DNA of 64,000 nt from Hormiphora californensis (Eukaryota; Animalia; Ctenophora), in contig CM035351.1 of NCBI GenBank assembly GCA_020137815.1, positions 4,216,001 to 4,280,000 of the forward strand, written 5' to 3'. A model generated the notes under the pieces. That model was not told the DNA's origin. It did not search any database and saw only the letters and a program-made list of their open reading frames with translations. The translations under genes were made by a program, and so were the position numbers. Positions within the stretch are counted from its first letter, which is position 1. Every line of letters starts with the position of its first letter. Positions 6,001-45,275 of this stretch are shown here, one piece after another.

Positions 6001-9000
6001 TTTTAAGCAGCAAACACTTCATTATGATTATCTCTGTCTCCAGATCCCATGGACCTGTCATATGACAGTGGTGAGATGGAGCTGTGTAACTCAGTACACT
6101 CGGATCGAGCCGAGGACGAATCATCAACAGCAGCGGAACAGGAGAGAACAAGAGAGGATAGCGAGGAAGGGATCCTGACCCCACTCCAGACGGATGATAG
6201 TCTCTGGACGGCCACCAAGCTGGTTTCTAATCTGGTACTACAGTCAGATAATCACTTTGTTAGTGAGATCGTGTCGAGTAGCGCGGAGTTAACCCCTATA
6301 ATGCCTGACAAGCGGGTAAGTTAGAACTACACAGTCGCCCAAATCCTGTTCAAATCCTAATTTAATGCCTAATTTTAATCCTATCTAAATCCTGTTTACT
6401 GATACCTTTACCCCCCCTCCCCAGTTTACAGATAACTTGAAGGTATCCGGTGCGTCCCTGGACCCCGATAGTGGCAGTGACGGGGGTGAGATACTACCTC
6501 CTGACAATGAGGTCCTTGAAACTGTCGGAGAGGTCGCTGGAGAACATCTCCTGGCTGATTCAGTGGAATGTATTGAAGAAAAGAGGGTATCATTTAACGA
6601 GGCTATCTGCCCCTTGATCGATGTAATCTCAAGTACTCCGTGCCCTGGTAATTTAAGGAGAGGGTTACAATTTCGAATCTCCCCAGACTTATACACCAGT
6701 ATACCACATCTGAGTCTCCTGTCTCCTCCCTTTTCCCTATGTATATTCTAGTCTTCTGTACCAGAATACCACTTCCCCAATCTCACGAACCCCTTTTGTC
6801 CCCTCTCAGAGTACAGTATCCCGCTGGAGAAGCACGATTCAATAAAGAGGAAGTTCAATGAGATAATTGATAGCAGATTTATCAGGATTCCCCAGTATAA
6901 TGACCAATACCTTGTTCTTCGATCTCCCTCAACCGATGATAATAGGTTAGTGTGTGGCCGTTTACAGTTGATAATTGATATTTGCATAATTCTGCTACCA
7001 ATTTGGTAGATGAACTAAAATCTACCAATGGTCCCACCACTCTCAACTCACTAACATTTCAGTCTGAGTGGTAACGACCGTCCTCCGGTATTCTTTCTCC
7101 GTATGGATTGTTACCACGAGCACCTCTCGACCCCCGTCTCCTCTCTCCCTACCTGTGTACTGGAGGTACTAACCGGAGACGAGAAGAAGAAGCGAGAGAT
7201 GGAGTTCTGTTTCACTTGTTACACAGTCCCCTCCTCAGTACCAGTTTCCCCCGCTGCTGTTGTCAGGTCTCCTGCCTCGGCTGTTAGACACCGCCGCCGG
7301 GACTCGCATAGGAAGAGTGAGGGAGATAGAAGGTCTAGTGAACGTAGTACCTCTTTCTCTGCTCACCAGCTGTCACGGTCTCTTCATGAGGACTACAAAT
7401 CGTATAGGTACAGGAAATACAATATGTTTTTGCTGTAAGTATTAACAGAATCACAAATTAAGCAAATCCGGTTTATTCACAACACAATTATTGAAAATCT
7501 CAGCTCTACTCTAGCTCTCCTGGGATAACCCAATACACCTCTCCTCCCCCAGGGAAGTGTCTCCATCGTGTTCATCTCCCAACCTATTTCGACAACACGC
7601 CCTCCTTGAATCAGACCAGCTGACTCAGAAATGTGTTATGGATGAGTTGGTTAGGGAGGTACAGTGGTTGGTGGATGATCAGACTATAACCCACCTGAGA
7701 AGGCGGTCCCCTGTTACCATGGATACCTTGCAGCAGGTGAGAGGGTTACCTTACAACAGGTGAGAGGGTCACCATGGTTACCTTACAGCAGGTGAGAGGG
7801 TTAAAGCCAGAGGGGGGGGGGGGGGGGGCCCGGGGGTATAAAAAGTCACTTTTATAGAGGGGGGGGGCTGCCGCAAAAATCTCAGCTACCCTCTTTTCGG
7901 CCGATGAGATTTTTGAGATTTTTGGGAAAATTTGTTCAATTACGTTTGAGATTTTTGAGATTTTTGTGGTAAATTGGCAAAATTTTGGCTGCCAATACTC
8001 AGGTTTTCGACATATTTTTTAGCTTAAAACTGAATCATAATAGCAGTTTAGTAATTTAAATAGGTAGATTTCATGTTTTAACTTCACATTAACTTTTGTA
8101 CTAGAACACAAGGAAAATTTCTATTCAGAATTTTTATTTTTGGTAGAAAAACACAAGGATTGTTTCTATTCCAAATTTTCGGGCAGGTGAGTAGAACTTC
8201 GCTCCTAATAAAAGGCTGCAATAAAAGGCTGCAATAAAAGGCTGCAATAAAAGGCTGCAATAAAAGGCTGCAATAAAAGGCTGCAGAAAAAGGCTGCAAT
8301 AAAAGGCTGCAGAAAAAGGCTGCAATAAAAGGCTGCAATAAAAGGCTGCAATAAAAGGCTGCAAGGTATCACGTATCCAACCAGACTAAAGCGGGGGATA
8401 GACCGAATCGTCTTCCCCTAATAGTGTTTCGTATCACGTATCGGCTGTAAAGAGACCGAATCACCCTCTCCTAATTATAGTGATTCGTGTCACGTATCCA
8501 ACTACACCATAGGCGATAGAGAGAGCGAGATAGAGAGCGAGTACGAGTGAGAACTGAGAGAGTGAAAAATCAGAATCACGGTGTGGTATCACGTACCATG
8601 GTATCCTCTAATGAAAAGTGGTTACCAATTGACAATGAGACCCATCGGTCCCGATACGTGATTCTCTACCGCTATCCCACCGCTATGTATTCTCCATTAG
8701 TCTTTCCGTATCGATCCACGATTCAGTAGAGGTAGTCAGTAACTACTGAAAGTGTTGGTCTAATGAGGTAGAAACTATGATAGGTGAACCAAGTGGTTGG
8801 GTGGTTCACCTGTCATATTGTGAGTGCGTGTAGCACTCATTGTGCTACACGCTCAATCAATAGATCGGTAAGCGGACTCTAGTGCTAAAATCACGAAAAG
8901 CGAACTCGAGATTTCGGCCATTTTCTACCTCATTAGACCAACACTCTCAGTAGTTACTGACTACCTCTACTGACAGTAGCAATTCAGAAGGCCACTGTTT

Positions 9001-12000
9001 GCTGCTCCAAGAATTAAGATGGCTATACAGATAATATCTGGTACCTAAACACATGTTCTACATGGTATTATGTCAATAAAAGAATTCAACCCAATATCTA
9101 CCCCTATTTTTCTCACTCCCCTTCAAGTAGAATCTCCCTTTTTCAACCAAATATCTAGCCCTATTAGCCTCCACCCACCCCGAACCACCCCACCCGCCAC
9201 CAATATCTACATACTAAACAAAACTGTGGACTGAGAACAAATCCTTGCTAGTTTAGCCTTCTAACCTAATTGAACATAATCAGACAGATAGGTCTCACAT
9301 ATCCCGTATCAAAGATTAAGTGAAAACGAAGACGAAACTGTGGTTCAAGATCAAAGTATAAACGTTCCTGGAAAAAATAACCACACAGGACTAGAACAAC
9401 CCCGAGAAGAGCCCCACTCCAAATCTCCCGTTATATTGTGAACCTGCCAGATGGTAGTTCCATGCGAGGGGAGAGGGCGGGGGGACTCTTCTCCAGTGCC
9501 GGCGATATCGCTTTGCGATAGCCCCTGTGGGCTTGCCGTAGGCAAGCCCAGGCACTCAGAGTAGTAGTAGTAGTAGTACCTCTACTGAATCGTGGATCGA
9601 TACGGAAAGACTAATGGAAAATACATAGCGGTGGGATAGCGGTAAGTAAGTTGAGAACATGAATCATGCTGCCAGACCAAACCCAAAGAACCGAGACAAA
9701 CCCCGCAAAACCAACCTCCAAACCTCCACCAAACCTCCAAACCTCCACCAACCTCCAAACCTCCAACAACCTCCAAACCTTCACCAAACCTCCACCAACC
9801 TCCAAACCTCCAAACCTAAACGCAACCTAACCACACCTAACTCCGTCCAACACCAAGAGATCCGGAACAGCGGAAAGACCGAGACCCTCCGTCCACTAAG
9901 ATGGTAAATGTGGACACTCGCCAGAAACCGAGACTCAGATCGAACTCATCAGCCGTAAACCTGACACCGTTTCGGGGCTTTAATTCGGTACGGGTACACA
10001 AGGTACTAAGTCAGGCGCCCCGGCAATCTCGATAATCTGAGACCACCGTTCGATCTATACCCAGTTGCCCGGAATGAATGTGTCGACTGGGGTCCCTCAC
10101 TGCCTCCCCCTTTGACAGGTTTATGACAGTAAGGGTACACCCGTCCAAACACACACTCCACTGCGAGGGCGAGTCTCAACCACTTCACTGCCTCCACTAC
10201 TCCACATTCCTGTACTCCCACTCCTTCTTCGCCGAATGGAAGTAGATCCACATGGAACAGTGAGCAGCCTCTTTCCCCGTATCCTTAACCAGCTTCCTAA
10301 GACCCCTCCCTCTAAACCCAAGACGAGAAGCTGCTCTAACCAGACTATCCGCCACCTGCCCTCGAGCCCCAACCTCTACCGCCATATTAAAACACCTCCA
10401 CCCATTAGACTCACACTCCCTCTCAAGGTCCGTGTACCGTTCAATCTTGAGAGTATGGGCATCCCCTATTCTCTCTTCTGCAGGGCAAGTGAGCTCCCAC
10501 CAGATCACCGTCTTTACCTCTCGCGAGAAGACAACAAGATCAGGCCTTAACCTGGTCTGGGCGATCTCCGCCGGGAACTTGAGCTGACTTCCGATGTCAG
10601 AGAGGACAACCCAGTCCTTAGCGCCTGACAGGATCCCACACCCACTAACCCTCTTCTTCCCCTTCTTCTTCCCCTTCTTACCCTCTGCAACGAACTCGAT
10701 ACTCCGGGACCCTCTCGTGGACCTCGATGCAGCGTTAGCACGGACCTCGCAGTGAAACTGTACCTGCTCGCCTATCTGCCGCAGGACCTTGTCATGCCGC
10801 CACCGGTATCTCCCCTGACCCAGAGCCACCTTACAGCCGGTTAGAATATGGCGAATACTCCCTGGAGCATCACCACACAGCTTGCAAAGACCGTCTTCCC
10901 CTTCCTTCCACTTCTTTGCAAGCGACGGCACGACAAGGGTTCCATAAACTGCTCTTAGGATGAAGCCAACCATTCCCTCCTTCATGTCGAATAGGCTTCT
11001 CCAGCTTAACTCCATCGAGACCACATCCTCCCTCCAAGCTAACCACATCCCCTGAACCTCTAACTGCATGGTCTCTACAGTCCTCACCTGGTCTAACCTC
11101 TCTCGAACTCGCTCAATCACAACACCTCTCCTCTCGCTGTCCGACAGCTTCTCCCAAGGCTTTCGCCACTCACCGAAGCCAATCCCTGCCCTAGGGTATG
11201 GAGGAATCATACCGCGGACTGCATCACACCGAACATCACTAACTGCCTCCTCTAACTCTTCCCCTGCTTTCCACTTCCTACCAGACCTGACAAGAGGCTG
11301 AAGCGCTAGGATAACTTCATCCTGTGAAGAACTGTAAGTCTGCTGCAATCTACACTTCTCCACTTTCCAGGTGTCAAGGAGGCTGTTCAACGGGAGCCGT
11401 ACAGAAGACTCCGAGTTGAACAGACAAAGTCTGCTAAGAGTGTGACCTCCACCCAACCACTTTCGCAGGAAACTGTTTACTGACTGTTCCCAGGCTGCTA
11501 CGGTGGTCAACGGGGTGTCGTAGATTGCCAGAGGCCACTTCATCTTAGGCAGAACAAGGTACTGGTAACCCCAGCACTTCTCCAAACCCGATAATCCACT
11601 CTCGTCCAACCGTCCCATCCACAACTTCAGCTGGCGAGCTGTTTCCTCGATGGCGACGGTGTCCCTTACATCAGCCCGAATCCACCGACCAAGGAACTTA
11701 ATCGGCTTCTCAGTAACGTTCGGGATCGTCTCACCCCCAAACGACAAACTCACCGACTCTACCACCTTACCTCCCTCCAACACCAGGGCCCGAGACTTAG
11801 ATGACTTAACAGTAAATCTCGCCCACTCCACAAACTCACCAAACACCGACAACATAACTTGCATGTCACTCTGTGTGGCAGTGACGAGGCAACTGTCATC
11901 CATGAACAGCTTCAAAGGAGGGACCGGTGTGCCATCTTTCACGTAGGCCACACTACGCGGTATCTTAATGGCCAGATACTCCGATACCATGTTCATACAC

Positions 12001-15000
12001 AGTACAAACAAAATAACGGAGATGACACACCCCATGAATATTCCGACCTCGAACTGTTGCCAGTTCGATGTTACCTCCCTTGAACTGAACCTACCGAAGA
12101 CTCCAGAAAAGTAACTCAGGACTATGTCCACGATCGGCTGTGGAACTCGATAGAACCGGAGAGCCTTGACGATCAAGAGGTGAGACACGGCACCATAGGC
12201 ATTCGCCAAATCCAACCAGACCACCGACAGGTCCCGCCTCATAATCCTTGCGTCCTTCAAGGTCTCCCACATAGCCCCGAAGTGTTCCACACATCCACTT
12301 ACCCCGGGAACACCACCTTTCTGGATCCGCCTATCCACGTACCCATTCTCTACCACAAACTCTGTTAAGCGCCTCGCAAGTGTCCCTAGGTAGATCTTTC
12401 CCTGGACGTTACCTAAGGAAATCGGTCTACCAGTCGCCGGAGTGAAATCCCCTTCCCCCTTGGGAATGTACACTCCTTCAAACCAACGACAGTTTTCTGG
12501 ATATCTCCGGTACTTAAAAGCAGACTTGTTCAAGTTCCACAAGTTCCGGGAAATCTTAGGACACCGCTTGTACACCAAGTATGGGATGGCATCGGGACCG
12601 ATGAGGTCTCATTGTCAATTGGTAACCACTTTTCATTAGAGGATACCATGGTACGTGATACCACACCGTGATTCTGATTTTTCACTCTCTCAGTTCTCAC
12701 TCGTACTCGCTCTCTATCTCGCTCTCTCTATCGCCTATGGTCTAGTTGGATACGTGACACGAATCACTATAATTAAAGGTCCTCCCAAACTATTATGTCC
12801 CTTGCTGCGCGCGACCGGATTTTAGACAGCCATAGCTCCACTCCCTGATGAGATAGAGACTTGAAATTTGTTTTGTGAGGAGATCATGTCGAGTTCTTCC
12901 TACAAAACAAATTTCAAGTCTTTATCTCATCAGGGAGTGGAATTATGACCGTGGGAAATTTCACAAAACCCGAGTGAGGGACATAGTAGTTTGGGGAGTA
13001 CTTTAGGGGAGGGTGATTCGGTCTCTTTACAGCCGATACGTGATACGAAACACTATTAGGGGAGGACGATTCGGTCTATCTCCCGCTTTAGTCTGGTTAG
13101 ATACGTGATCCCTTGCAGCCTTTTATTGCAGCCTTTTATTGCAGCCTTTTATTGCAGCCTTTTTCTGCAGCCTTTTATTGCAGCCTTTTTCTGCAGCCTT
13201 TTTCTGCAGCCTTTTATTGCAGCCTTTTATTGCAGCCTTTTATCAGGAGCGAAGTTCTACTCACCTGCCAATTTTCGAATGGAAATTTTTCCTTTCCATG
13301 AGATTTTTGAGAAAAATTTGCGGGTTTTCCCCGAAAAATCGCAAATTTGCCTCAAAAATCTCAAAAATCCCACGTTTTTTAGCCAAAAATCGAAAATCCC
13401 AGCTACCCCGAAAATCGCCAATGAGGCATGAGATTCTTGCGGCAGGCCCCCCCCCCCCCCCTATAGAGCGTCAATTATATGGAGCACACTACCCAGTGAA
13501 GTGAACTTAGCGGCCGACCTGTGAGCAACTGACGCCTATTATACACGAGGGCGATAACAAGAATAACAAAAAATGTCCAACAAGCGAGTGTCCAACCTGG
13601 TCCAAAACTGTACTGCAACTGCTGCATAATTGTCACAAACAGTTAATGGAAGACACTAGCGTGGTGCGTGTGGGGGAATGTTCGCCGCACCAATTTCGTT
13701 TTTGAAGGGATTGCAAGAAGAGTTTTTCGGGATCGACTTTTCACGTTTTGGCTCGTAGCTCCTGTTCCTGGTGGGATGGGGACTTCGGGCCTTCGCCGTT
13801 CGATGGGGTTCCCTTTCCGGCGGTGCCCGGGCGATTTCTGTGGCTCGTCGGGGGGGGGGGGGGGGCTTAAGGGGTTATTGTCATGGTTGATCGTGTCTCC
13901 GGTTCCTGGTGAGCTGAGGGGGTCGCTTGGGTGCCATTGGAGGGGGATCCGGGTTCAGGCCCCATCGGGTTGCGAGGGCCGAGGGTTTGTGGTCTTTGTC
14001 TCACCAGGAACGGGAGTTGTGGGCTGTGAAGGGTTGATCTTGAAAAACTTTTTTGCAGGTTATTTTTGAAAACGAGGTTGGTGTGGCGCACATTTTTTGT
14101 GCGTACCACGCTAGTGTTTCCTACTAAGTCATTCAATTATTACTGGTATACACTTTCTCCAAATCTTCCACGCCCACTCCCCCATACTCCGGTATATGGT
14201 GCTGTAGAAGATGGGGTTTAGAAGGCTGTTGCTAGGCAGCACCGCTAAACTAAACACCTCGTAGATAACACCAGGCGGGGCTGCTGGGTTAATCCAGCTG
14301 TAGTAGAGAACGGTCATGATGTAGGACAACCAAGCGACTGTCTGGCTTCCTATTAGCAGAGCGAGCTTTATAGCGAGCTTACCGACGTAATCGTTGTTAT
14401 TTGACCCACTTTCGGATGCGGAATTGAAGCTAGCCACCAAGATGGAAGCATAGGAGACCGTTAAGATGATAATTAGCACGCCAATAATCACACAATATCC
14501 GATCTTGTAGTAGATGTAGCTGGCTTGGTTTTTAAAGATGTTAGCAACACACAAAGGGCTGTTTCCATAGTAACCAATACTTATGTAATCAAAGATTGAC
14601 GGCTTCGAAGTTATTTCGCGTAGGTCTGCAAAAATCTTCTCGATCCCCAGGAAATTTTCACCAGTATCAGCTGAACTACCATTGGTTTCGATAGTATCAA
14701 AGGCAAGAGAGTGCATCCTCCTTAGATGATCCTCGCTATACCGATTTATTAAGGGATTCTCTGGGCCGGAAGTTAACAGGATATCCGTCCGGAATACCCT
14801 CTGGATTTCCGACAAGGGGAGCGCTGGAAGGATGGCATGGACAAGGTTTAGTACTCCGAGCACTAACGAAATAACCCAAATGGCCCTAATGGAGATATCC
14901 TTCACCAAATCCAAACATGTCATAAACCGTATGGCGCTCATCATGGTTATGAGGAGGAAAGACCCGTGAGAGGAGAAGGAGAAGAGGCTTCCAAGTGCAG

Positions 15001-18000
15001 CACAGGCGAAGCTTGACCTCCATTGGCCATCCAACTGGCAATACTCCCCTCTTACACGAAGACCTACTGCCGAGACCACAAGTGTTACTAGATACAAGCC
15101 CATCAAGAGATCATAAAATGCCACTTGAATCCTGAAAACCCTATCGATTTTCCCGGGTTTGTTGTCGGGGATCTTTTGGATTGTTTGGTATCCTACTTTG
15201 ATGTTCAGTAGCACGATAGCGACCCCTCCGGTAAGGGCGAGGACACATAACACTTTCGATCGAATGAGAAAGGTATCTGAACTGAGAAGGCCAGCAGGAC
15301 ACCCAACACACTCATCTATACCATTGGCACAGTCCTTGATTCCATCACAGACCTTTTCCTCGTCAATCCATTTTAACTCTTGTAGAGTTGTATTAGTCCC
15401 ATTGCAATAGAACCTATCTGGACAAAACTTTTCATCGAGACCATTAGAGCAGTCAAATACACCATCGCAAATTTTGCCGAAATCACTTAGAGTCTCGAAA
15501 TCGTTTCCTGTGAACATACAGTGAAATTCCAGAAATCGGATATATTTTTCCGTTATACCTAAACTACCACATAAATCAAACAGCCATGTGTTTGTTGTGG
15601 AATTAGTTGTAACATTCACATAGGGTCCCACGATTTCGATGCACGTCTCCTTAACACCTCTACCACCAGTGAAACCAGCTTCCAAAATATCGTTGTAGTA
15701 CTCAGCGAGAGTGTTCTGAAGTATCAGTACAGTCGAATTACCATGTTCCGGGTCGCTGCAGTGAGAGGTTGACTTGTTATCACAAGATAGAGTCGATAAT
15801 GTTGGTGCAATGGCACACACCTCTTTCTTAGGAATGCATGCAGTGTATGACTTATCGGGAAGACACCGAACTGTCACGGCCCCGCTACACATACACTCGT
15901 CTGTGCCTCCCTCACAGTTGGCTACACCATCACACACTTGGGAGAAAGGAATGCAACCACCCAGCTTCCCTGGACAGTAGAATACTGGTTTCCCACCACA
16001 TTGGCACTCATCAGTCAAGCAGGCACTGACACCGCTGCAACGAGGATGCTTCTCTTGTAATGGACTAAGACTTAAACTACAAGTGATCTCAATCGATGGG
16101 TGTAGCTGCATAAATTTGTTCCACGCCCTTCTTTGTTGTCCAGACATATAAACAGCACCCAATTCCATTGCCACCTGAAATAAATCAACATTTCCCCGAC
16201 ACGTCATCAAGGAGTTATCACCAGCTCCATCGCTACCTGTCCAGTTTAGAAGTGTCCAGTTTTCTTGATCAAATTTCAGCTGATTAACAACTCCCTCGAC
16301 ACATGTTTTCGATTCTAACTTTCCTTTGTTGTAGTCTATTGGCATCAGGATCTCGGCTTTGATGTTGAACATATCACTTGATACGAGGGACACCAGGAAC
16401 AGAGAAATGAACACCTTCATAACTCGATAACGTTAGAAATAAATTGTTCAGTGGTCTTTATAAACTCGCTCTGTTCGTAAGGTGAGAAATCCGTTCTCTC
16501 TCACTTCAACTGGCTTTTAGCAGTTCTCGTAGCATGTGATCCCTTTGTGATTGGCATCGGTAACTTTGGTCCCAGAGATTCGAGTTATTTATAAATGCAA
16601 AATAATGGGGTGAGTTACCGAGAACTCAATATATTATCGCAAATCGATATAACATGTATAAGATCGTCACACCGCTCAAAGAGCTTGGTAGAACGTCGGC
16701 GAGAAAAAAATCGCGAGTGGGTGAGAAAAAAGCGGGTTGGTGAGAAAAAAAACGCAACGAGAAACACATTATATTTGCTCAATTACTTTTGAGATTTTTG
16801 AGATTTTTGTGGTAAATTAGCACAATTTTGGCTGCCAATACTCAGTTTTTCGACATATTTTTTAGCTTAAAACTGAATCATAATATCAATTTAGTAGGGT
16901 AAACCGGGGCAAAATGGTTAACTTTTTACTTAATCGATTTTTGGTAAAAAAATACAAGGATTGTTTCTATTCCAAATTTTTGAATGGAAATTTTTCCTTT
17001 CTATGAGATTTTTGAGAAAAATTTGCGGTTTTTTCCCCGAAAAATCGCAAATTTGCCTCAAAAATCCCACGTTTTTTAGCCAAAAATCGAAAATCTCAAA
17101 AATCCCAGCTACCCTGAAAATCGCCAATGAGGCATGAGATTCTTGCGGCAGACACCCCCCCCCCCCCCCCCCCAGAAAGTGAAATTGTGGACCTAAAGTT
17201 ATCCAACAAAAGGTTGTTTTTTGGGGAGATATGATAACCTCAAATATCTGAACAACTATATAATGGCTTAGACCTCTGAAACTTTGAATACTTGGTCTCC
17301 TTGATAAGATCTATCGATTGGTACCATTTTCATCTGTGTAGGTGACATAAATACACGCTTTTTTGAGGTTTACATTCATTTTGGGCGAAAAGTTAACTTC
17401 AAAAAACAGGGCCTCCTGATACACTTGGTGCACAGCTACCCTATCCAAAACTTACCTACCTCCGAGTTACATCACATATGTAAACCTCAGAAAAGTGCAT
17501 TTTTTGACCCTCGGACCCCCCCTCTGGCCTTAACATGATTACCTTACAGCAGGTGAGAGGGTTACCTTACAGCAGGTGAGAGGGTTACCTTACAGCAGGT
17601 GAGAGGGTTACCTTACAGCTGGTGAGAGGGTCACCATGGTTACCTTACAGCAGGTGAGAGGGCTAACATGGTTACTTTACAGCAGGGGGGGGGGGTCCAG
17701 CCCTAAAAAAGCTAAAGGTAACCCTGATTTTGGTCGATGGCTTTTTTATGTTGGCTTATAATTTAGCTTTTTTTAGCCCTACCTTTTTCAGCATTCATCT
17801 TGACACTTTTCCATTGAATTTTCATCCTTCCGGACGCCTACTGATTGTATTAATTGTTCATTTCCTGCACCTTTTTTTACCATAATCTACCGTTTATGTC
17901 CATACATAGCAGCTTCTGTATCCACCCCTACTGTCATTTTCTGGAGAGATTTTTTCGATAACAAGAATATTTGCACTATGTATCCATAGTGCTGTATTTC

Positions 18001-21000
18001 CCCGCAATTGGCATGTGACACTCCTAATTACATCCCATTACCCATGACCTAATGAGATTCTGAAAGGTGAGACAGAACAGTGCAGGTGATGAGCTGCCTA
18101 ATTAGGCTCCTTTTCTAGTCTATGTGATCTCCACTCAACTGACCTCATCATACTATTATCCTTATTATAAAGTACAAATGAACGTCGTGATGATGGTGAC
18201 CTATCCTAGCACGTGCAAATAGTGGGGGGTTGTCAAGGAGGTGCCATAGCCCAGCTACGCATCGGGTGATTGAAGGCTGCACGTGCGGGTTGGTGCAGTG
18301 GGTGAGAGGGGTGCTCCTGGGTTAGGGAGTGGGTATTCGGGTCAACGGGTGCTCTACTTCAACGGGTTTTCTAGTCCTTATTATAATAAGCAAATGCGTG
18401 GCGTGATGGTGATGATGTAGTATCCACACGTGCAAATGGTGGGGGGTTGCCCTGGGAGGTGGCTTGGGAGGGGTATTGGAGGGGGATACTGCACGTGCAT
18501 GTTATTGTTTGTTTGTTGCGTGTTCCTGTGTTGTTCCTGTGGTGTTTTGTGATCTACTGATGGGACCTCCATGATTGCCAAAGCCTTTCTACCTACGTAC
18601 CCCGTTGATTCTCTACACAGCTACACTTCTACGGATCTTTATCGCCTGATTCTACATGTTATTCAGCGGGATTTCCATTGATGTTTATCACCAGCGCTCT
18701 ACCACTACCAAGTACCAACCTCCGTATTCTTTACCCCAACATGGAGAGATGAAGAGTAAGAGGGGGGGGCCGGGGGGGGGGGCATAGAGACGGGTGGGGG
18801 GGGGGGTGTTGTAGGACTTAACAATGGGCTTTCTAGTTAAAGCAAATAGGGAAATCCCATGTCCCGTTTTTTTAACCAAATATGGCACAAAATTCCTGGA
18901 AATGGCCTTTTGCACGTGTTGTCCCTAGAGGGACCCTGGCAACCTGCCAGCTTGAGCCTTAAACTGCACGTGCATCCTTGATTCATCTCTCTGCCGGTTG
19001 TGTGATTGATCGTTTGCTCGATTTGATCTGTTCACCACGTTTCGTGAACATGACTACTCAACTTCAACACAATCGCCAGCGAGTTTGGAGGAGCCATATG
19101 TCCCAAACTGGCGCTGACGCCTATAGACTACGTGATAGAATCCTACAAAAGAGGTGATTATTATTCAAAAAATGTTGTCAACACACGTAATAACAAAGTA
19201 TCAATGGCACTAATAAGAAATGACAGTAATACGTGAAAGTATTTTGAAAATGTGCTCCTTCATAAAATACTTCAGGACCTGGCAAAAGAGGACCCGTGGT
19301 TTTTCCGTCGAAAGAATCCCTGTGGTTAATTTACCTGATAAATTTACTGATTTTAAAAATTTCAAATGATACTACACTATTTGCTTAGTTTACTGTATGA
19401 CCATTTACCATCCCCGACATTCGCCCGTAGGGCGAGCGGGCTTACTAGTGTAATCAATGACAATACCAGTGTGCAATTGTAATGACGAACACATGACGAA
19501 CAATGAACGTTATGAATTGCAAACAGGAAGGTGCGCGCGGCGCCGGGCTGTGCGTTCTAATGAAAGTGCGTCATTTCAGCACTGTAATAACTTTGCGGGC
19601 GTCGCCTTCGTAGACAATTTGAATTAGAGCGTGTGTGAAGTATTTCAAATGATATTTTGAGCACTCTGCACTGGATGGTTGCTATGGATGGGTTACGTCA
19701 CGGGACAAAAAAGTGTGACACTTCACTAGTATGTTAAACTTGTCGAATTCTAAACCCCTATGCCTCTTTGCAAAAGGCATCCGGGTGAATGCCTTCGGCA
19801 TTCACCCGGGCGGGGAAAAAATATTATTCAAATTTGATAAAAACAGTTTTAAAAAGTTTTAAAGAAGTTCAAAAACGCTATAAAACGTTATTATATAAGT
19901 TTAAAAAAATTGGTGTCAGCGGGATTCGAACCTAGATATAATGAATCCACTAAAAACTCAATTTTAGCTTTTTTAGGTTTTTTAGCTTTTTTAGCCTATA
20001 AAAGGCTAAAAAAGCTTAAAAAAGCCAATGGTACCCTGATTTTGGCCGATGGCTTGGCTTTTTTAGGGCTGGACCCCCCAGCAGGTGAGAGGGTTACCTT
20101 ACAGCAGGTGAAAGGGTCACCATGGTTACCTTACAGCAGGTGAGAGGGTTACCATGGTGAAAGACACATGGTATCAGGTGATTAATCTGTGAATGTTTTA
20201 GAGAAACAGCATGAAACATGGCTGAGTATTGTATAAAACACCAGAACCTCTCCTGTCATCCCCATGCTATCCTTCAGGAAGTAGTGAGCTATCTTCTCAT
20301 TGCACATTCCTAGTTGTAGCAGGTGTTGTGTGGTCGTGACATCAAACTGCCTCTTTTGTAGTCTGGCTTGTTTGTAGAGGTCTTCTTGATCTCCAAACTG
20401 CCTCTTTCGTAGTCTGGGTGATTTGTAGGCATCACTCCCATCACCTCCTGCCATCTGTCTCCTCTGCAGCTTGTGACAATGTCTCAGCAAGTACGCGTCA
20501 CCCCGGTCCCCCGCTAGCTGCCACAGTGGGTTATCGAAGCAGCCATCCCAGGACGGGATGTTATCACATGTTATATTTCTAGTGGCACGAGTGTAGTAGC
20601 TGACCAGCCAGGGCTTCTTTTTACAGTGGCGCCGAGTGTAGTGGTGCAAAACTTTGATCCCGCACTCAACCGATATCTTGAAGTGGGAGATGGAGGCAAA
20701 CGTGTTGAATGCTGAAGCAAAAAACTCTGTAGGAGACGGTATGTGCTTCTTACATACCAGATCTACCATAATCTTCCCTACCACTCGGATGTTTGGAGAG
20801 TCGGGTGCCACCTGATATGGCCAGGTAGAATAATCTCCGGAGCAATAATACATCTTGATCATAGGCATCAGGAAGCTGATCTCGTCCTCTGTCGGGTAGA
20901 AACAAACCAGTCTGGGGAGGGAGACAATTATCTTGACAAAGGTAGATACGCTGAGTGTGTGGTGCTCGAGACAGGGTAGGTACAATTTTAAGCTTTTTAG

Positions 21001-24000
21001 TTACTTACGGTAGTTGAAGAAGGAAAAATGTAAATCTCAAAGTCATGGCGAAGCAAGAAAATCGGGGAAAGACCCTGTAATAATAACGCTAACATGTGAA
21101 AATATGTGGCTAATGATGGTCGCGTCACGCGTATGCTAATATGTACAGATCTGTAGTTTCTCAGATGATTTTGGTAGCGACAGATCTGAGCGACAGATCT
21201 GTACATTATAATATACCTGACCATCATTAGCCAAATATATTTTCACAAGTTAGCGTTATTGATTTGGGTCAAATCATGAAATGTTGGTTTTAGCATAAAA
21301 TATTGGTCACTCATCATGAGTCATGAGTCATCACTGGCCGAATAAAACTGATTAAATACCAATTAATTCCCAATTAATTACTAATTAAACACAACTTATT
21401 ACAGGTGATGGACCACTGCTTAAAAGCCCCGCCGTCAGCATCAAACTGCGTGGTACAAACCCACGATCTACACTACGTTGACTCCTGGAAGGGTGACGAA
21501 TCCCGGAGTGAGGAGAAAGCTCGACACGAGGCACTTTTGGCGAAGATCCAACTCTCGCCGGAACACGAGGATTATAACTTGTGTAGGATCGGGCAGTACT
21601 TCTACTACTCTCTAAACTCTGAAAATGAGGAACGGGTAGGTGTGCAAATTAGTATGGGATATCCGCTTATTAATGCAATGAGTCTTTGGAGTTGCCTTCA
21701 GCCTTCACATAAATCATATCATGGGAGAGGCCCAAATGCAGGTAATAACCCCTCTCACTACTATTGTTAGTACTTGAGCCAGGCGCCTTCGGGGCGCAGT
21801 GCGAGGTACAGTCGAACCAAACCAAACCCCTCTATTGTTAGGAAGTGACGTGTCGAGATATTTCTGCTCACAGCAGCATCAGCAGTATTGGTTCCCGACC
21901 TTCCCATTACCGGTCATCCTCTTCATCCATCCCCGACATGGACAATCCGGTAAGAAGTTAGAAGGGGGATTGTTGGTTAGTACACAGGTACAGTGTGTTA
22001 AAACTTTTTGGACAATCCGGTAAGCAAGGGGTTAGGACTCAAAAATGTCTTGTAAATTGGGGGATAAGCTCTGTTAGAGTTGTTCCTAATAACAGCAGCC
22101 TGCAGTAGTCCCTCTTGGTTGACATGTATACTCCATCAGATGTTGACAAAGTGCTCAGAAAAGCCGTGTTCCCAGTTTTGGCTCATCCTCAACGTGTCCA
22201 TGATGCAGTTCCAGGTAAGCACAATCCAAACATCTAGTCTATCCCTTTCTTTCTTTCTTTCTCTCTCTCCCTCGTCCTTTCTCACCCTCTCTCTTCCTCT
22301 CCCTCCCACCCTCTCTCCTCCACCCCTCATACCCACCACACAATCTCCTCAGGTTGCGTTCCACACGGCGGACAAGGCCACTATGGACCAGGTGAATCAA
22401 GATGTGGTAAATGGTATAGTGGAGCAGACTCGGCACCTAAATAAAGTGCAGAATCAGGAGATGTTACTGGCCCAAATGGTGGATCCCAAGATATGCCCTC
22501 CCGAACTGTTACCCGGCTGGAAATCAAATACTGATCAGGTACTGAATCGATATAATAAAGGTCCTTTAGTTTTAATATTATCATCAGGCCCTGATCAGGG
22601 ACTCACATTGAAGGGATGTTCCTAAATCCTACCCCTCCGGCCTCCCTGACTCCTTTTTTGAGTTCTGGCACGACTAAAAAAGCTGTGTCAAAGCAAAACA
22701 TCTTGTTAAATGAACGGTTGACATGACCCATATTGTCCTCCAGGACTATGTGTGTGATATAGTTCACGTGATAGGGGTCCAACTGTGGGATAAAAATGAG
22801 ACAGAGGGACTCCGAGAAATCAAGGAGAGTTTGAACCTAAAGAATTTCAAGTGCGGGAACACAGACCAGGATGTTTACACTTATAACCTTGACGAGAAGA
22901 ATAACCGTGATAGTGAGTGCTCTCTTTCCCTCCCTCACCTTAGTCTCTCTTTAGTAAAAGTAACGATCTCACATTATGAATGTAACACTTTGTTCGCTCT
23001 CCAGTGAGATCAACATTCTACTTCCAACTACCGGAACCCACCGCTAAGGTCCCTCCTACGTCATCAGATTCCCCCAGAAGAAGTGGAAACAAGAAACTAG
23101 AGATTAATGTCCGGGGGTTGAGGCAACCTGATCCAGAAAAACAGGACCCTCTAGACAACTTTGTGCAACAGAAATTAGAGGAGGCAAAAGTAGTGGATAT
23201 AGCACTCAGACTGAACAGGTACATACCTTAATTCTTCACTTTGTAACCCCCAGACAGCTCATCATATCTTCCCGTATCTTCATGTAATTAAAAATTATCA
23301 TGATTTGACGTGCAATGCTCCGGTGCTCCTAATTCTACTAACACAGTCTCGTAGGACGTCCTAACAAACAAACACACACGATTTCCCTTTCAGGAACAAC
23401 CAGACTAAATTGAATGTCGAGGAAATAGCATTCCTGAGTCCTAAGAGTAAGAAAGTCCAGCGAACCCTGTACTGTCGTATACCCGAGTACTGCTACCAGT
23501 TTCTGCCCTACTTCTGGTTTTACCTTAATCAGGTATTTAATTAATTAACTGACCAATTAATTAATAGGACGGTATGTGACGTGTGAAAGAGATCTGTGTT
23601 TACTAACGTGTTCCACTCTCCACAGCACTTGGTACAAGAGAAGTTGTTCCTGGCACGTTACGAACCCAATAACCCTGATAGGATTATCTTCCTAAACGAG
23701 ACTACAGGGGCGCCTGATTGTGCTAGGGATTGTGAGGTGTATATCAAGGTGAAAACAACAAGTCCAGACTTCAGAATGAAACACCATGGCCGGCACCAAC
23801 ATGGTAATAACGGGGAATAATTGTAGTTAGTTATAGTAATTAGGGAGTAATTAATAAGTAATTTGTTAGTAATTATTAGGTAGAAAATAATTTGAATTCA
23901 TTGGAGACATATATTTATAACACGCTCCCCTCTCTTCAGAAGACCGACAGTCCGGTATCAAGTCTGCTACTCCTGAACATTTCAATACTGGAGAGTGGGG

Positions 24001-28874: not shown

Positions 28875-31504
28875 TCATCTCCTGCAATTCATGCTCAGTT
28901 TGCTCATGCTCCGTGCCACATTTTCACCACCCTTCTTGCTTTTCCTCTCCGTGCAACTCTCGAACACCTTCCACAACCGAATACTCTCGTCCGCACCGAG
29001 TGACACCACGGTGCTACCCTCGGGTGACATGGCAAGTTGGAGAACTCGATCTTGGTGACCGGTCAGTTCGGCTATCCGGGTCATGGAGGGGTATTTCCAT
29101 ACTGTCAGTTGGTTCTGTAGGTACCCGTGCCCCGTTACCAGTTCCTTGCTGTGCTGGGACCACAGGATTGAGCTTACCTGGGGATCAGAGATGAGGGTTA
29201 ACGGGAGAGAGGTGAGGGTTAACAAGGATATGACGTAGTGAGTGAGCCGGGAACTTGGTGCTGGGGAAAAGACTTCACAACAGATATAGGATGTTCAGAA
29301 CATCAAAGTTTAGTGTACTAAACATACCTGAGATCCAGTGTTAACTTTGTGTTGAAGAGTACCCGCTGAGGCGTTCCAGAAGCACAGTTGTCTATCCTGG
29401 GATCCACCTCCTGTAGCTAGTAGATACTTTGAGTGGGGTGACCAGGCCAGGGCCTTCACAGCCGCACTGTGCTCTATTAGTGTGTGGACGGGTGTTGTTT
29501 CTCTGTCCGCCCATACCATAACCCTGTTGTCGTTAGACCCAGAGGCTAGGTATTTACCATCTTTACTGTACGCTAGTCCACACACCTGGTGAGAAGTGAG
29601 AGATTAGGACACATATAGCAAGACATCCCGAATTAGGACACATATACGGCTACATCTAATAGTAAGACATACCTGGATATGTAATATTACACAAAACCCC
29701 CACCCCTCTAGTGTTTACAGCTGTATTACATAATATTTAGAATTCTAGAACTTCTAAATAATGTGTACACAACAAATGCCCCCTTTCGTTAACAGAATTC
29801 TAGAAGGTACCTCAAGATCGTGGCCAGTGAGTGTTGCAACTTGATGGTTAGCCACCCTCACGTCATGATGGATGATCTGACCGCTCCTGCTACCACTGTG
29901 GAATTCAGATATATTAGTAGTTGGTGGCTATCGAGCCATATGTTAGCAGTTTGTGAAAGTTAATATAAAGTTAGATTTGTTTGGGAAAGTTTGGTGTGTG
30001 GTACTTACCTAGACAGGATATACTCATTCCAGGCTAATGATCCCACTCTGTCAGTGTGGCCAGCCATGGACCTGATCTGGGCTTGTTTCTCAACATTCCA
30101 TAATGACACCGTGTTGTTATAATCACCAATTGCTATTATCTCAGGGACTATGGGGGACCACTGTACAGATGCGATCTGACAATCGTGCTGGAAAGGGAGG
30201 GAAGGGTTATCTCCGTTTTCACGAAATTACTCATCAGAAAATCTCCTGAATATTGTATTAATATGCACTATACTGCTAAGAGAAAATCTCCAATGAGAAA
30301 TTTTACACGCCCCCTACTACCTCTGTAGTCTATGTACCTTGCTCGACCCTCCCGATTACAAGGGTTAGAGCATTACTTGGGGGGGGGGGGTGCAACATAA
30401 CAGCTAACATACCTCAGTAAGCACGGTGATATCCCCACTGGCCGCATTCCATATATAAACACTATCATTGAGTGCTACACACAGCAGATTACCAACACTC
30501 CAATCTAGCAGGTTGAGGTAGTAGTCATTGTTCAGGTCCGGAGCATCCAGGACCCGCCAAGCGGACTGGGGTATGGATCTGTAGGATGCCTTCCTGTTTA
30601 CCTGTCCTGAACTCTGGGCAAACATACCCTGGGGGAATGGCGGGGATATTAAAGGACTGTCGTTTAACTAAGTTAAAGGCGAACTTACAACAGGTTGTCC
30701 TACTCTGGAAAGGTTAAGAAACTTATTAAGTTGGAGTCGCGGCGGCCCAGTTTGTATTCCCTGCCCAGTAGAGGTCGGCCCTGTTACCCACCTTAGGTTG
30801 GGAGCTGAGAAGATTATTTGAAGGTAGGGGTGCCTTATTCCGCATATTCAGGATCTTGGGCTGCGGTGCAATGTTGAGGTTCTGCTTCATCACCTCTTTG
30901 TACCTAGACGTGGGAGTAACGGGTTTAAGGGTTTTAGCTCTGAGTTGGAGGGTGCCCAACGATCAGGGTCCCAAGAGCGGTGAAGGGCTATGATGAATAA
31001 TGAGGAAAGAAAAAACGAAGAAAAATCAGAAGTGGGGTGGGGGTAATACCTTCGCGTGGTAGGGGAGTCCAAGTTTTCATCTTCTTTGTTCAGCATATCA
31101 AACCCACTGCTATCAAAGTTGTTTCCAGATCGGGGTGGTATAAACCGATCACAACTTGGAGTGGTGTGTGCCGATCTCTTGCCTTCCCGGGACTTTGACA
31201 AGATCTTCTTGGGTGTTCCAACCTTGTTCTGGCACTTGAGAGATGTACCCAACTTTTTCTTGGGAGTCCCATCAGGATTTGTTGTCTTGTACGGCATGTT
31301 GAGGGTGAGAGAAGGTTTACAGGGTGTCCGTCTGGCTTCACCCGACGTGATACCGGAGAAACTTTCTCCAATCGTGCTGGATACATTACTGAGACTTGAG
31401 AATGAGGTATTTGAGGTTGTGATTTTGTTTCTCCGTTCCATTTCTTTCCGCTGCCACCGTGGTACTACTCTGTTGGAGATAATGGGCTCGCGGGAATCTG
31501 ACAT
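28875..31504 (-). CDS. CDC20: Cell division cycle 20 / fizzy (APC/C activator), ~7 coding exons
   Basis: C-box [33 protein letters not shown]40 exons ([44 protein letters not shown]). Confidence 0.95.
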
Positions 31505-37396: not shown

Positions 37397-39013
37397 CGGA
37401 TTTTTTCCCTGCCCGGGTGAATGCCCGAAGGGCATTCACCCGGGATGATGTTTTTAGCACGCACGTGCTAAAAAGATCATTCAGGGTTTAGAAATCAGCA
37501 GATTGTTTAGTTAACTAAAAGTGTCCGTCCGTCCGTCCGTCACGGACAACGCCTAACAACAAGTCTGCTCCTTCATAAAACTTTCATCTCACGCTTCGTT
37601 GATTCAACAAAGGAAATGATTAACACACATTGTGGCGCGCAATTACTCGCTCATAGCACTTCCCACTATCACCTGAAATCACTTTGGGTGCTCTACAGCC
37701 ATGCTATGAAGTGGTAGAACGTCTTCCAAGCATGAAACTACTGTCACACTAGTGACTCGAGTTGAGATGCGGTTAAAGTTGAAGCACTTGGTAACCAACT
37801 GGGGTCTCCTAAGCAACTGCCTTGGTTGCCATAGCAACTGTCTCGGTTACCATATCAATTATCAACTGCTTTGGTTACCATGGCAACTGCTTTGGTTACC
37901 ATAGCAACTTACCTAGTTAGTAACTAGTAGTTACCTTAGTAACCAAAATTGCATCAGCCAAAAAATGCTCTTTGAGCACAAAATTCATCAGGAAATCCAG
38001 TTTTGAAGCTTATTCATCAATTTTAAATCCATTTGTGGCAGGGAAACACCGCATTATGAATACATAATGCAATAATTCTTGTTTTTAGAGTTTAACGTCG
38101 GATTTTTTGAAACTGTCACCCCCTGGGTATTTTCAAACTTCGTAAATGACCATAAATCCGGTTCCTGACGAGATAGAGACTTGAAATTTGGAGGTTACGA
38201 AGATCTTGCGAAGTTCTTTCGAACCTCCAAATTTCAAGTCTCTATCTTATCAGGAACCGGAGATATGGCAAATTTTGTTATTTCAGGGGGGTGACAGTTT
38301 CAAAAAATCCGACTTTAAACTCTAAAAACAAGAATTATTGCATTATGTATTCATAATGCGGTGTTTCCCTGCCACAAATGGATTTAAAATTGATGAATAA
38401 GCTTCAAAACTGGATTTCCTGATGAATTTTGTGCTCAAAGAGCATTTTTTGGCTGATGCAATTTTGGTTACTAAGGTAACTACTAGTTACTAACTAGGTA
38501 AGTTGCTATGGTAACCAAAGCAGTTGCCATGGTAACCAAAGCAGTTGATAATTGATATGGTAACCGAGACAGTTGCTATGGCAACCAAGGCAGTTGCTTA
38601 GGAGACCCCAGTTGGTTACCAAGTGCTTCAACTTTAACCGCATCTCAACTCGAGTCACTAGTGTGACAGTAGTTTCATGCTTGGAAGACGTTCTACCACT
38701 TCATAGCATGGCTGTAGAGCACCCAAAGTGATTTCAGGTGATAGTGGGAAGTGCTATGAGCGAGTAATTGCGCGCCACAATGTGTGTTAATCATTTCCTT
38801 TGTTGAATCAACGAAGCGTGAGATGAAAGTTTTATGAAGGAGCAGACTTGTTGTTAGGCGTTGTCCGTGACGGACGGACGGACGGACACTTTTAGTTAAC
38901 TAAACAATCTGCTGATTTCTAAACCCTGAATGATCTTTTTAGCACGTGCGTGCTAAAAACATCATCCCGGGTGAATGCCCTTCGGGCATTCACCCGGGCA
39001 GGGAAAAAATCCG
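37397..39013. repeat. ~1.6-kb inverted duplication; arms ~700 bp containing HINE-like ends and (GTCC)n
   Basis: 37397-38095 is the reverse complement of 38315-39013. Confidence 0.93.
38096..38314. mobile_element. TTAA-flanked MITE at the palindrome axis
   Basis: TIR GTCGGATTTTTTGAAACTGTCACCCCC; TTAA at 38092-38095 and 38315-38318; internal palindrome. Confidence 0.85.
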
Positions 39014-41052: not shown

Positions 41053-44000
41053 CCAGCTTTTAATTGACGCCGTTATATAGGCACTCTTTTTGGGTTTGGG
41101 AAATACGCAGGCTGACAGGATTGCTCCAGGCTCCTACACCAAAAAGTAAAAGAGGGGGAAAAGGAAAGAAGGGGATGGGGAAGGGGAAAAAATGAGAAAT
41201 ATAAAGAAGAGGAAGAGAAGGAAAAAAAATGGGAAAAAACCTCCCCTTTTTTTTCCTCCGCCCTGAAAAAAAAGAGTTAAACCAAGAACGGGGGGAAAAA
41301 ATTTTTTTATTTTGTTTCGGAAGAAACCGGGGGAAGAACAACAGAGGGGCAGACAAAGTTGAGAAAAACCGAATTAACGGAGCTTTGGGAAATTTAGGAA
41401 TGTCGAGGAGATGGCGAGGGTACCCCGAGAAAAATTTGACGCGCTTTTTGCAGGCATGGAGGCACACGAACGAATGACTGGGGGATGGGGAAAAGGAAAA
41501 CAAGGGAAAAAGGCCAAAAAAGTAGTTGTTGCCATTCCCTCATGGTCTAAAGGGAAAGGGCCACAGCCGAAAATTGGTCGAAAGAAAAACTTCCTTTTGG
41601 GTTTCCAAAAACCAGAAAGGGGTTTTGACCGGGGGCAGTAAAAAACAAAACCACAGAAAAAGGGAGTGGGAAAAAGATTTGTTGGGTTGGACACATCAAA
41701 CTTTTTTTAAGCCTATCACCCCCAATACCCTAAACCTTTTTCGGCAGGAGAGAAAAAGGAAAAAAAGGGAAAAAAAGATCTTTTCCGGTTTTTTTGTAGC
41801 CTGATTACGCTTTTCACAAAAAAAACAAAAAAAAAAAAAACACAGACAGGATGCCCGGGCTTAATGGACAAAGCGAGAGTTAGGAAAACAAATTTGGACG
41901 AGATATGATCGAATGCAGACAAGAGTCAAGGAGCCTTCTAAAAAGAGAGGAGAGAACGCGAGAGAGGGAGGGAGAAGAAAAGAGAAAGAGAGAGGGGAGA
42001 GAGAAAAAGAGAGGAATAGGAGAAGAGGGGAGAGAGAAGTGAGAAGGATGAGAGCAGAGAGAGAGATAGAAAGAGAGGGGAAGAGGGAAGAGAAGAGAAG
42101 GGAGAGAGAAAGAAGAGAAAAGGGGAATAGAAAGATATGCAAGTGTGTGTGTGTGCTGTGTGGGAGTGATGGAAGGAGAAGATTAGCTAAACACGGCGGC
42201 ATGACTCGTGGCTGGTAAATGATTTGATGAAGGTATAATCAAGCATCCACCATATTTACCCTCCAGGTCGCCACACACACACACACAGCACAGTAGAACA
42301 TAGCTGATCACTGTGTTTAGTACCTACCGCTGGTAACGTAGTTTGGCCGCTCGTGGAAGCCCGGGGGTTGAAGGACTGAGAGAGGGTATTGGCCATTGGG
42401 CAACTATGTCACCTTTGTTTTATCGCCCCTAAATGATTTTTGTGTAGTGTGTACACTTCAATTATTATAGTCCAGCTCTAGTGGAGTATTCGGCCGTGAT
42501 TACCAATGATATGTGATTCAATTGTGCTCTTTGTCAGATCATGTTCCCTGTTCCTCTAAATAATTCATAATTCCCGCTGCAATGAATTCCTAGTTTTTTA
42601 CCACTGTCTGTACATTATCATCTTCATGCATGAAGATTTTAACATTTTGTTTGGCACGATTACCGGTTGTGGCGGTTACCAGACAATTTGTTACTGACAC
42701 ACAAACCACTAACACACAAACAACTTAACATAACAACAACTTCTCAACCGCGTGTGGTAGTACACTGATCTGTGTCGTATTATCGTTGTGTTTTCTTTGT
42801 CCGTACAAGTGTTTGTCCTCCTCCACTTCCTTCTACCCTTCTTCCCCGTAGTGTGTTGATACAGCAGTGTGTCAATTTAGTATCATGGAAGGCGTCGTCC
42901 TGAGATCCTCAGCGGAATGCACCTCAGAGATACAACAGGTATACAGATTGTCAAAACTATGTTTTGTAAAGCTGCTCTCTCCCTGAATGCATCGTTTTTT
43001 CGTTCGTCCCGGGGATCGCGGAGACAGTTCAAACATTTCAAATGATATAGTCCCGTACTGGTACCAATCCTATTTGATTGCAGGATCGCAGTGACAGAAG
43101 GAGTGTGTTTAGTATGGTGGATTTGGATGACGAGGGACAGTTAGATGCACATCCCAACCTACAGGATAACATTGTTCCCGGTGTTAGGTTAGTGATCACC
43201 TTGAATGTAGAAACATCTTAATAAGACTGAATCGGATTCAGTGTTATTAAGATTTAATCTGAATTCTCACCGAGTGTGAATTAAAATTGCGATGTGAGGC
43301 GTGAGCCACCCAACTGCATTCAAGATGTTAGAATAGTTATCGCCGATATTCCTAGTTGGTCTGATCTTCGATACCCCGATAATCACTAATTCCCGTGTCT
43401 TATTCTCATATTTAATCTTCAAGCCACCACTGCTTGACCGTCTAGAGAAATGGGAAAATGGTTATGCAGAAAACGAGGTCACGGAGCACCAAGTCTGACA
43501 ATTATCCTTTTTAGGATCCCCCTTTACTATCGATTTCAATATTTCATGATTGCTTATGTTCCGTGGAACGTGCAATAACTTGATGTGTCTTCTTTCAGTC
43601 AGGCGAAGAGAGGGAGTATCATCGCTAAGAAACTTGTTGAATATGCGAGCAATATTAAAGGCACCATTCGTTACACCAGTGTACCAAGGTTCCACTTACC
43701 ACGACCTTCTGAGTGCGGGAACATCAAAAAAGATCTACAAGGTAACAAAAAACATAGTGGGTGCCATAATTTCAGTGAAGTCCAAAGTTGTTGAACTTGA
43801 AATGAGAAGAATTATAACTTGTTTCATTTTTCAGATTTACATCAAATAAAATCGTATACATCATGGGGACTGATTATGTTTTGTACTGTCACTATGGCAA
43901 TAGGTAAGTTATCATTTTAGTGTAGCAGTATTATACAATTGTACTGTAGTTTTATTTAGTTGTCGAATATATCGATACTACATCACTCTCCACAGTGATG

Positions 44001-44362
44001 CAGAATTATGTCGTGTATATTACAACTTGTACAGCTGCACTTCGTGTCAGTATTTACCAGTTACCAACATATTCATATTTATAATTTATCGACATTTTGT
44101 CAGATGTCACTGTTAATTAGATAAGTTCCAACACTGGAACCCTAATATATCCCAATTTCTGGGCCAACTGGAACCCTAATCTAACTCTCTCTCATTCAGG
44201 TCTGATAGCAATGACATTGTACGATAAGATAGGATTTGTAATGTACGTGATATGGGGAGTGTGTGTATTCCTTGACATATCAGTTATCGTCGCATCACAA
44301 TTTTACTGCCAGCTTCTCCTCCGAAGTAAGTCGTATGTAACTACAACATTCTTGCGACTACT

Positions 44363-44488
44363 AGGGTCAGCACACACCAAAATTAAAATTTTGATTTTGA
44401 CGCCGCACACACCAGCAGCCGTTAAAATTTCTCTCACCCATTCTAAAAGTAACATTTTATTAATTTTAACTTTGGTGTGTGCTGACCC
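44363..44488. mobile_element. Small MITE (also at ~48791-48917), TA-flanked
   Basis: GGGTCAGCACACACCAAA / TTTGGTGTGTGCTGACCC; empty-site sequence GACTACTACTGTT at 49356-49410. Confidence 0.8.
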
Positions 44489-45275
44489 CTACTGTTATAT
44501 TTGTTGTTGTAGTTACTACTAGGACCTGTCTGGCGGTGTCGACCCGATCTGAGAGCACCGTTGTGAGAATCAAAACGGTGTCTGAAGCTACCAGACAGGT
44601 TCTAGTAGTAACTACAATTATAGTACAATCACGCTACTACAACTGTTAGTCAACAGTAGTGGTAACTACTGTTATCATGGTTATTATACTTTTTGTAGTA
44701 GTAGTGAGATTGTAACGAGATTGTAGCGAGATTGTAACGAGATTGCAATATATTGTTCATCAATTCATCATGTGACAATATATTGTCATATGAACAATAT
44801 CATATTGCACATGCCTGTGTTGAGTTAATGAGTTGCTGTGAACAATTCAACACATGTGCAGTACCTACTGACGTTAATCATTCTCTGCCCCTTCAACTGT
44901 GATACAGCTGTGTGTTAATTTAGTATCATGGAAGGCGTCGTCCTGAGATCCTCAGCGGAATGCACCTCAGAGATTCAACAGGTATACAGATTGTCAAAAC
45001 CATATTTTGTAAAGCTGCTCTATCCCCTTTTTGTTTTAAAATTTTCCCTAGGGATCGCGGAGACATATTAACAGTTCAAATTATTATAGAGTCCCGTCAT
45101 GCTGGTACCAACATGATCGATTATTGCAGGATCGCAGTGACAGAAGGAGTGTGTTTAGTATGGTGGATTTGGATGACGAGGGACAGTTAGACGCACATCC
45201 CAACCTACAGGATAACATTGTTCCCGGTGTTAGGTTAGTGATCACCTTGAATTTGTAGAAACATCTTAATAAGAC

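Follow-up and report, generated by a model that had tools for sequence, protein, structure and literature searches.

We examined a 64,000-nucleotide (nt) stretch of the genome of the ctenophore Hormiphora californensis (GenBank assembly GCA_020137815.1, contig CM035351.1, positions 4,216,001 to 4,280,000; hereafter the window, numbered from its first letter), in which a complete receptor gene lies within a transposon-like insert, designated K, inside an intron of a gene that resembles SZT2 (Table 1). Two sequence matches suggest this identity of the host gene: the exon at 1080-1475, upstream of the insert, matched human SZT2 with an E-value of 7e-4, and the downstream part of the gene was 97% identical to a Pleurobrachia bachei gene model (sb-numbered identifier) whose sole PDB match was SZT2 (E-value 0.015). 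Identity at this level also places the animal among the pleurobrachiid ctenophores. Searched alone, neither of the exons bordering the intron matched SZT2, and the first of them had no database match; they meet at a GT..AG junction in phase 0 with both frames open. The 13.7-kb intron so defined (7737-21404) contains the receptor-bearing insert, which agrees with the location in an SZT2 intron given in a preliminary description of the window. A minisatellite of 23/32-nt units starts across the donor site of the first exon and occupies 7714-7800, 17534-17685 and 20079-20158. Its unit copies that exon's splice donor (CAG/GTGAG), which is thereby repeated about a dozen times in the intron.

Table 1. 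Features of the SZT2-like intron and its insert, in window coordinates
Feature	Position	Strand	Basis or remark
Host (SZT2-like) exon before the intron	7553..7736	+	open frame, GT donor
Left TTAA target duplication, inside 23/32-nt minisatellite	7801..7804	.	sequence inspection
Left terminal inverted repeat of K, begins AG	7805..7852	+	terminal repeat alignment, gapped pattern
Element A1, later insertion, ~500 nt of its own sequence plus nested B	7860..13461	+	7-nt duplication TATAGAG
Element B, nested in A1	8182..13269	.	long terminal inverted repeats with 13-nt minisatellite, GG ends, 8-nt duplication
Reverse-transcriptase frame of 5'-truncated non-LTR retrotransposon inside B	10197..12599	-	Pfam RVT_1, E-value 6.2e-15
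Likely continuation of K left end (assignment to K inferred)	13469..13513	+	loose end in X5
Short inverted-repeat element D, 7 nt past receptor stop codon	13648..14121	.	self-comparison
Intronless 763-residue LDLa-type rhodopsin-class receptor	14129..16420	-	unbroken open reading frame, Pfam, model
Low-copy upstream DNA, putative promoter	16421..16664	-	TATAAA at -42 and -173
High-copy repeat piece of 36 nt (16665-16700) plus 72-nt linker	16665..16772	.	loose ends before 16665 and behind 16700
Element A2, left end short by ~70 nt	16773..17173	+	self-comparison
Right end of K with right terminal inverted repeat (~17490-17529)	17174..17529	+	multi-copy in organisms A and B
Right TTAA target duplication, minisatellite resumes after it	17530..17533	.	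bridged by X1 contig
Next host exon	21405..21635	+	open frame

The insert K is 9,725 nt long (7805-17529) and splits the minisatellite, with TTAA on both sides. Its termini, which can be read directly, are purine-purine (AG on the left and, in reverse complement, GG on the right) and form imperfect terminal inverted repeats (TIRs) with 32 of 39 aligned positions identical, plus a 10-nt gap in a G run. A gapped pattern derived from both ends matched the window twice, at just these ends, and was matched in none of 100 shuffles; it found no locus in metagenome and viral contigs. Excision of the insert in silico left a single TTAA within a regular 32-nt unit of the minisatellite, so that the insertion is younger than the array and the receptor was not in the ancestral intron. 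The earlier statements on the inverted termini, on their Kolobok-typical character and on the absence of the receptor from the ancestral intron were thus borne out. Because the TTAA and the 5'-RR ends (R, purine) fit Kolobok, and no transposase for K was seen within the window, we call it Kolobok-like. The same minisatellite is also occupied, 150 nt from this insert, by a second element with TIRs (17686-20078), which has G-rich ends and a CAGCAG duplication (17680 and 20079) and contains further high-copy repeats. The array is a hot spot for insertions.

The intact gene between these ends is read antisense to SZT2, and its frame contains neither a stop nor an intron, as the preliminary description had it. 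Pfam assigned the protein to 7tm_1 (E-value 4.4e-8), and its predicted structure has seven long membrane-type helices between residues 389 and 733; at a mean pLDDT of 55.9 just the helical part of the model is usable, the ectodomain being of low confidence. The best PDB match of a profile of 12 relatives was relaxin receptor 1 (RXFP1; E-value 4.9e-12). The LDLa label previously given to the protein is based on a single cysteine motif (residue 156) and on the presence of PF00057 in its close homologues; Pfam (E-value threshold 0.001) called no LDLa domain, and no leucine-rich repeats, on the window protein itself. The start of the receptor aligns with that of a 75%-identical P. bachei fragment, and the closest P. 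bachei receptor models are 75-82% identical, as against 97% for SZT2. There are at least nine related gene models in P. bachei, and the family is large (114 clusters at E-values up to 1e-30, distant ctenophore-type data included). In a quick tree of 28 rows (the window protein, the first 650 residues of P0001, and P0002-P0027, with P0028-P0032 omitted), made before the closer P. bachei fragments were found, the window receptor stood in a separate clade together with P. bachei models. A self-comparison revealed no second receptor copy in the window, and a search of metagenome contigs gave 42 pattern matches, none a confirmed relative. The low-copy DNA upstream of the gene lies with most of the open reading frame on one 2,362-nt X1 contig, which ends at 16694 and whose length implies that coverage. 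The receptor's 3' flank lacks a poly(A) tract, and A runs there do not exceed 6 nt, which together with the presence of upstream DNA fits a copy made from DNA.

High-copy repeat makes up over half of the insert. Element A1 is complete and has its own duplication (7853-7859 and 13462-13468; chance identity of a 7-mer, 8.5e-5), so it is a later and separate insertion; without it K measures 4,116 nt and the left TIR continues into 13469 and the receptor 3' flank. The left TIR is tied to the receptor in this way because the 7-nt duplication belongs to A1. The nested element B is in turn flanked on both sides by AATTTTCG (chance identity of 8 letters, 1.5e-5). The 13-nt minisatellite of B (13113-13243 and 8207-8364) forms tandem AATAAA; its right array is sense to the receptor, about 900 nt past the stop, and could provide a poly(A) signal, and its left array is sense to SZT2. 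The depth of the retrotransposon inside B, relative to SZT2, was far higher in sample S2 than in S1, a hint of a copy-number difference between individuals. Since A1 has its own duplication, A2 is truncated on the left, and the sequence outside A1 on the left does not match that outside A2 on the right, we ruled out both composite transposition of A1 with A2 and simple recombination between A copies. The proposals that the A copies bracket the gene as a pair, and that the gene arrived later with element A, are accordingly not supported.

Short-read contigs supported several of the joins. Eleven of 13 runs contained part of the window, at shares of 0.49-0.75 for the two samples of organism A and 0.07-0.09 for the two samples of organism B; no run was recorded as RNA. 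We took contig depth as an indication of low copy, probably of one locus, and not as a copy number. The junction of right TIR, TTAA and minisatellite was bridged by a 102-nt X1 contig (17467-17568) with no differences and 63 and 35 letters flanking. Position 13513 was crossed by contigs at 13461-13759 (X2, sample S1) and 13461-13641 (X5, sample S2, no differences), and a contig at 13887-14213 (X4) links D with the receptor frame. The element-receptor junction, supported in this way in two samples, was covered in each at ~1.0-1.2 times the SZT2 flank contig's depth, and is therefore low copy, probably at one locus. Two other X5 contigs track the window up to 13513 and then diverge, and 13513 is likely the left capture breakpoint; its counterpart on the right likely falls in 16665-16772, where the contig data assign 16665-16700 to a high-copy repeat. 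At a G run (13852-13867), contigs of X2, X5 and X6 omit 14 letters at about single-locus depth, and long G/C runs of the window may be overlong or variable.

The right end of K was multi-copy in both organisms. In organism B a different sequence precedes 17176, and K's own interior is thus absent from the present copy. Another copy of the right end in X1 is also followed by TTAA and then by different letters. At five of the 356 right-end positions most of the X5 depth differs from the window, and since there are only five, the copy looks young. An organism-B contig ending at 17529 was not used as evidence for the terminus, a variant at 17500 accounting for its end. Coverage in organism B was absent or nearly so beyond 17543 and absent over most of the receptor upstream DNA, holes which prove nothing. 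No empty-site joint appeared among the 15 joints listed of 199, or among eight further joints listed.

Taken together, we think it probable, though well short of certain, that an intact receptor gene was copied as DNA, by template switching, into a TTAA-flanked Kolobok-like transposon that now lies in the SZT2-like intron at one locus. The history we infer has four steps. A young copy of family K would already have contained A2, ~356 nt inward of the right end. A break in this copy would then have been repaired from a receptor locus via template switching, with the interior from ~13514 to inside A2 replaced by ~3.2 kb comprising the gene and its upstream DNA. In the third step, a transposase acting in trans would have inserted K at the minisatellite TTAA. 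Finally A1, B and the retrotransposon would have inserted in their nested order, into which D cannot be placed. That transposition came after rather than before capture is somewhat the likelier sequence of events: the large cargo, the breakpoint ~100 nt from the left end and the lack of a parent in the window favour capture followed by a jump, and the single-locus depth favours capture in place. Transcription of the receptor is predicted to start in its own upstream DNA and to run antisense to SZT2, and the protein may act as an orphan LDLa receptor.

Several observations weigh against this history. A young capture predicts a near-identical parent, and the paralogue contigs listed are ~90% identical (29 differences in 302 nt and 25 in 271, with a depth in both samples close to that of a single locus). 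Over the receptor region, single contigs have 0.6-2.4 times the depth of the SZT2 flank contig, which is compatible with both the presence and the absence of a parental copy. Since the copy looks young yet a near-identical parent is not evident, relocation or loss of the parental copy is possible. No contig spans the whole insert, no piece across the left SZT2-TIR junction was among the 32 listed of 46,761, and none among those listed from S2 crossed an insert-host junction; S1, for its part, is possibly the source of the assembly. X1 has a coverage hole at 16708-16751, so the link between the upstream DNA and A2 rests on the assembly. The receptor 3' flank is without AATAAA. Although 9 of 14 listed coding variants in the receptor were synonymous (28% expected, p 0.005), which speaks for the proposed history, these 14 are a subset of 40 listed of 294 and mix alleles with paralogues.

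The alternative that survives best, which we nonetheless regard as unlikely, is that a loaded K transposed repeatedly and that several receptor paralogues lie between the same ends as an amplifying subfamily. The ~90%-identical paralogue contigs would suit this, as would the several-fold summed depth over conserved coding parts of the receptor, the number of related P. bachei models and the multi-copy K end; the two contigs diverging at 13513 could be loaded siblings. Against it, the junction-crossing contigs have just the depth expected of one locus, the 2,362-nt receptor contig has a depth of 11.4 in X1 compared with 15 for the junction and 11.8 for the minisatellite, and the family also has many members in distant ctenophore-type data, so that K is not needed to explain its size. 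On these depths, a rough measure, the suggestion in the preliminary description of a route for amplifying a receptor family is not borne out. We consider it distinctly unlikely that the gene entered without the K transposase, through ectopic repair or recombination guided by A homology into a K already resident in SZT2, with the K ends as bystanders. A2 is left-truncated exactly at the cargo boundary, as if repair had switched back inside A, and according to the available part of one survey most single-copy animal Pack-TIRs (transposons with captured sequence between their TIRs) arose by in-place gap filling (PMC8277862). However, the left breakpoint lies outside any A copy, the flanks rule out a true composite of A1 and A2, and the in-place cases of that survey have small cargo (median 224 bp) and lie within 15 kb of the parent in 56.9% of instances, with no parent found in the present window. 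A misjoin through A or other repeats, linking the K ends to a receptor locus unrelated to them, is highly improbable: the repeat content, the lack of a spanning contig and the hole in X1 would allow it, but the three nested duplications (TTAA, 7 nt and 8 nt), which misjoins would break, all match, and the right junction is present in short-read contigs. Hardly credible at all is insertion of a retrocopy into K, which the intronless gene and the presence of active retrotransposons might recommend, given that ~245 nt of low-copy DNA containing TATAAA motifs precedes the gene, that no poly(A) tract follows it, and that homologues of 670-885 residues on contigs of 62-838 kb, if single frames, suggest the family to be intronless anyway.

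With capture by template switching as the preferred reading, the locus likely shows how a whole gene can move into an intron, and offers a clean case in that the receptor is large and every nested duplication is readable. It bears on the question of whether, in ctenophores, nested genes arise and receptor families spread through capture by transposons. More speculatively, and we would give it little credence, a Kolobok-like family in pleurobrachiids may routinely carry whole working genes, have spread the LDLa subfamily and explain a real share of nested intronic genes; if true, this would amount to gene traffic on the scale of Pack-MULEs in the sister group of other animals.

Elsewhere in the window, an intronless 414-residue frame on the reverse strand (55134-56378), which we take to be serpin-like from its motifs, is possibly another nested or moved gene. 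Exons at 28875-31504 on the reverse strand, presumably CDC20-like by their motifs, end tail to tail near the SZT2-like gene. An inverted repeat at 37397-39013 has perfectly matching 727-nt arms separated by 163 nt, further palindromic elements lie at 35046, 36621 and 39017, and a 1.57-kb direct repeat (43339-44890 and 47756-49318) is 96% identical between copies 4.4 kb apart.

We compared the locus with known systems using the accessible portions of the articles cited. A literature search, with most subscription papers and Repbase outside its scope, found no article describing this locus or any ctenophore receptor carried within a transposon. As far as its accessible text goes, the Kolobok distribution list quoted in PMC9587614 does not include ctenophores, and the corresponding portions of PMC4079206 and PMC12716839 added nothing further on the receptor family. 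The signature of Kolobok is a 4-bp TTAA duplication with 5'-RR..YY-3' termini, in which piggyBac differs (PMC9587614, PMC6004289). K shares the TTAA duplication and the 5'-RR ends, and its short, asymmetric TIRs resemble those of Kolobok and Xenopus T2-MITEs. Unlike the latter it ends in AGCCA / GGCCA (AGCC/GGCC) rather than the AGGRR motif (PMC6004289), and unlike KolobokP it has no long terminal direct repeats, self-comparison showing internal A copies only, one of them truncated.

The receptor resembles the Ciona LDLRR-GPCRs, GRL101 and the relaxin receptors in having putative LDLa-type cysteine repeats before a relaxin-receptor-like 7TM (seven-transmembrane) region, and the Ciona group in its lineage-specific expansion and in the lack of called leucine-rich repeats (PMC2396169, in the part available). 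That lack separates it from the relaxin receptor and GRL101 (type C LGR). It is 24-26% identical to its ascidian matches, apart from which it groups with P. bachei.

Like a Pack-TIR, K has non-transposon sequence between both TIRs and a target duplication, and its ends are those of a repeat family also found without the receptor (the left end presumably so). On sequence grounds the locus would work as a Pack-TIR, with two of the three defining features found; for the third, an identified parental copy not tied to the element, the nearest candidates are the ~90%-identical paralogue contigs, with none in the window. The preliminary description called pack-type capture best documented in plants, which needs qualifying, as animal cases are also documented, Kolobok elements included. 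The portion of the survey available (PMC8277862) has eight Kolobok rows, from frogs and zebrafish, with parental segments of 137-761 bp, compared with ~3.2 kb and a full 2.3-kb frame here. It describes two routes, in-place gap filling and capture followed by transposition, the latter for Drosophila Ssk-FB4. In that near-whole-gene case nearly the whole gene and upstream DNA were taken, with part of the 3' end gone. As in Ssk-FB4, host sequence is enclosed by the TIRs of a target-duplicating, non-autonomous DNA transposon; Ssk-FB4, however, is MULE-like with 9-10-bp duplications, multicopy and expressed, and has a known parent, whereas K is Kolobok-like and seen at one locus. In the part of the survey at hand, animal TIR transposons seldom carry whole genes, and the present case stands out by its complete 2.3-kb gene, by its lineage and by its link to nested intronic genes. 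H. californensis has 2,357 nested genes, 176 of them flanked by transposons on both sides (PMC8527503), and the receptor is of this kind in lying within another gene's intron with transposons on either side. The figures in the accessible part of that article are counts, given without analysis of shared ends or target duplications, whereas a single pair of ends and its target duplication can be read at the present locus, which for that reason points to a mechanism.

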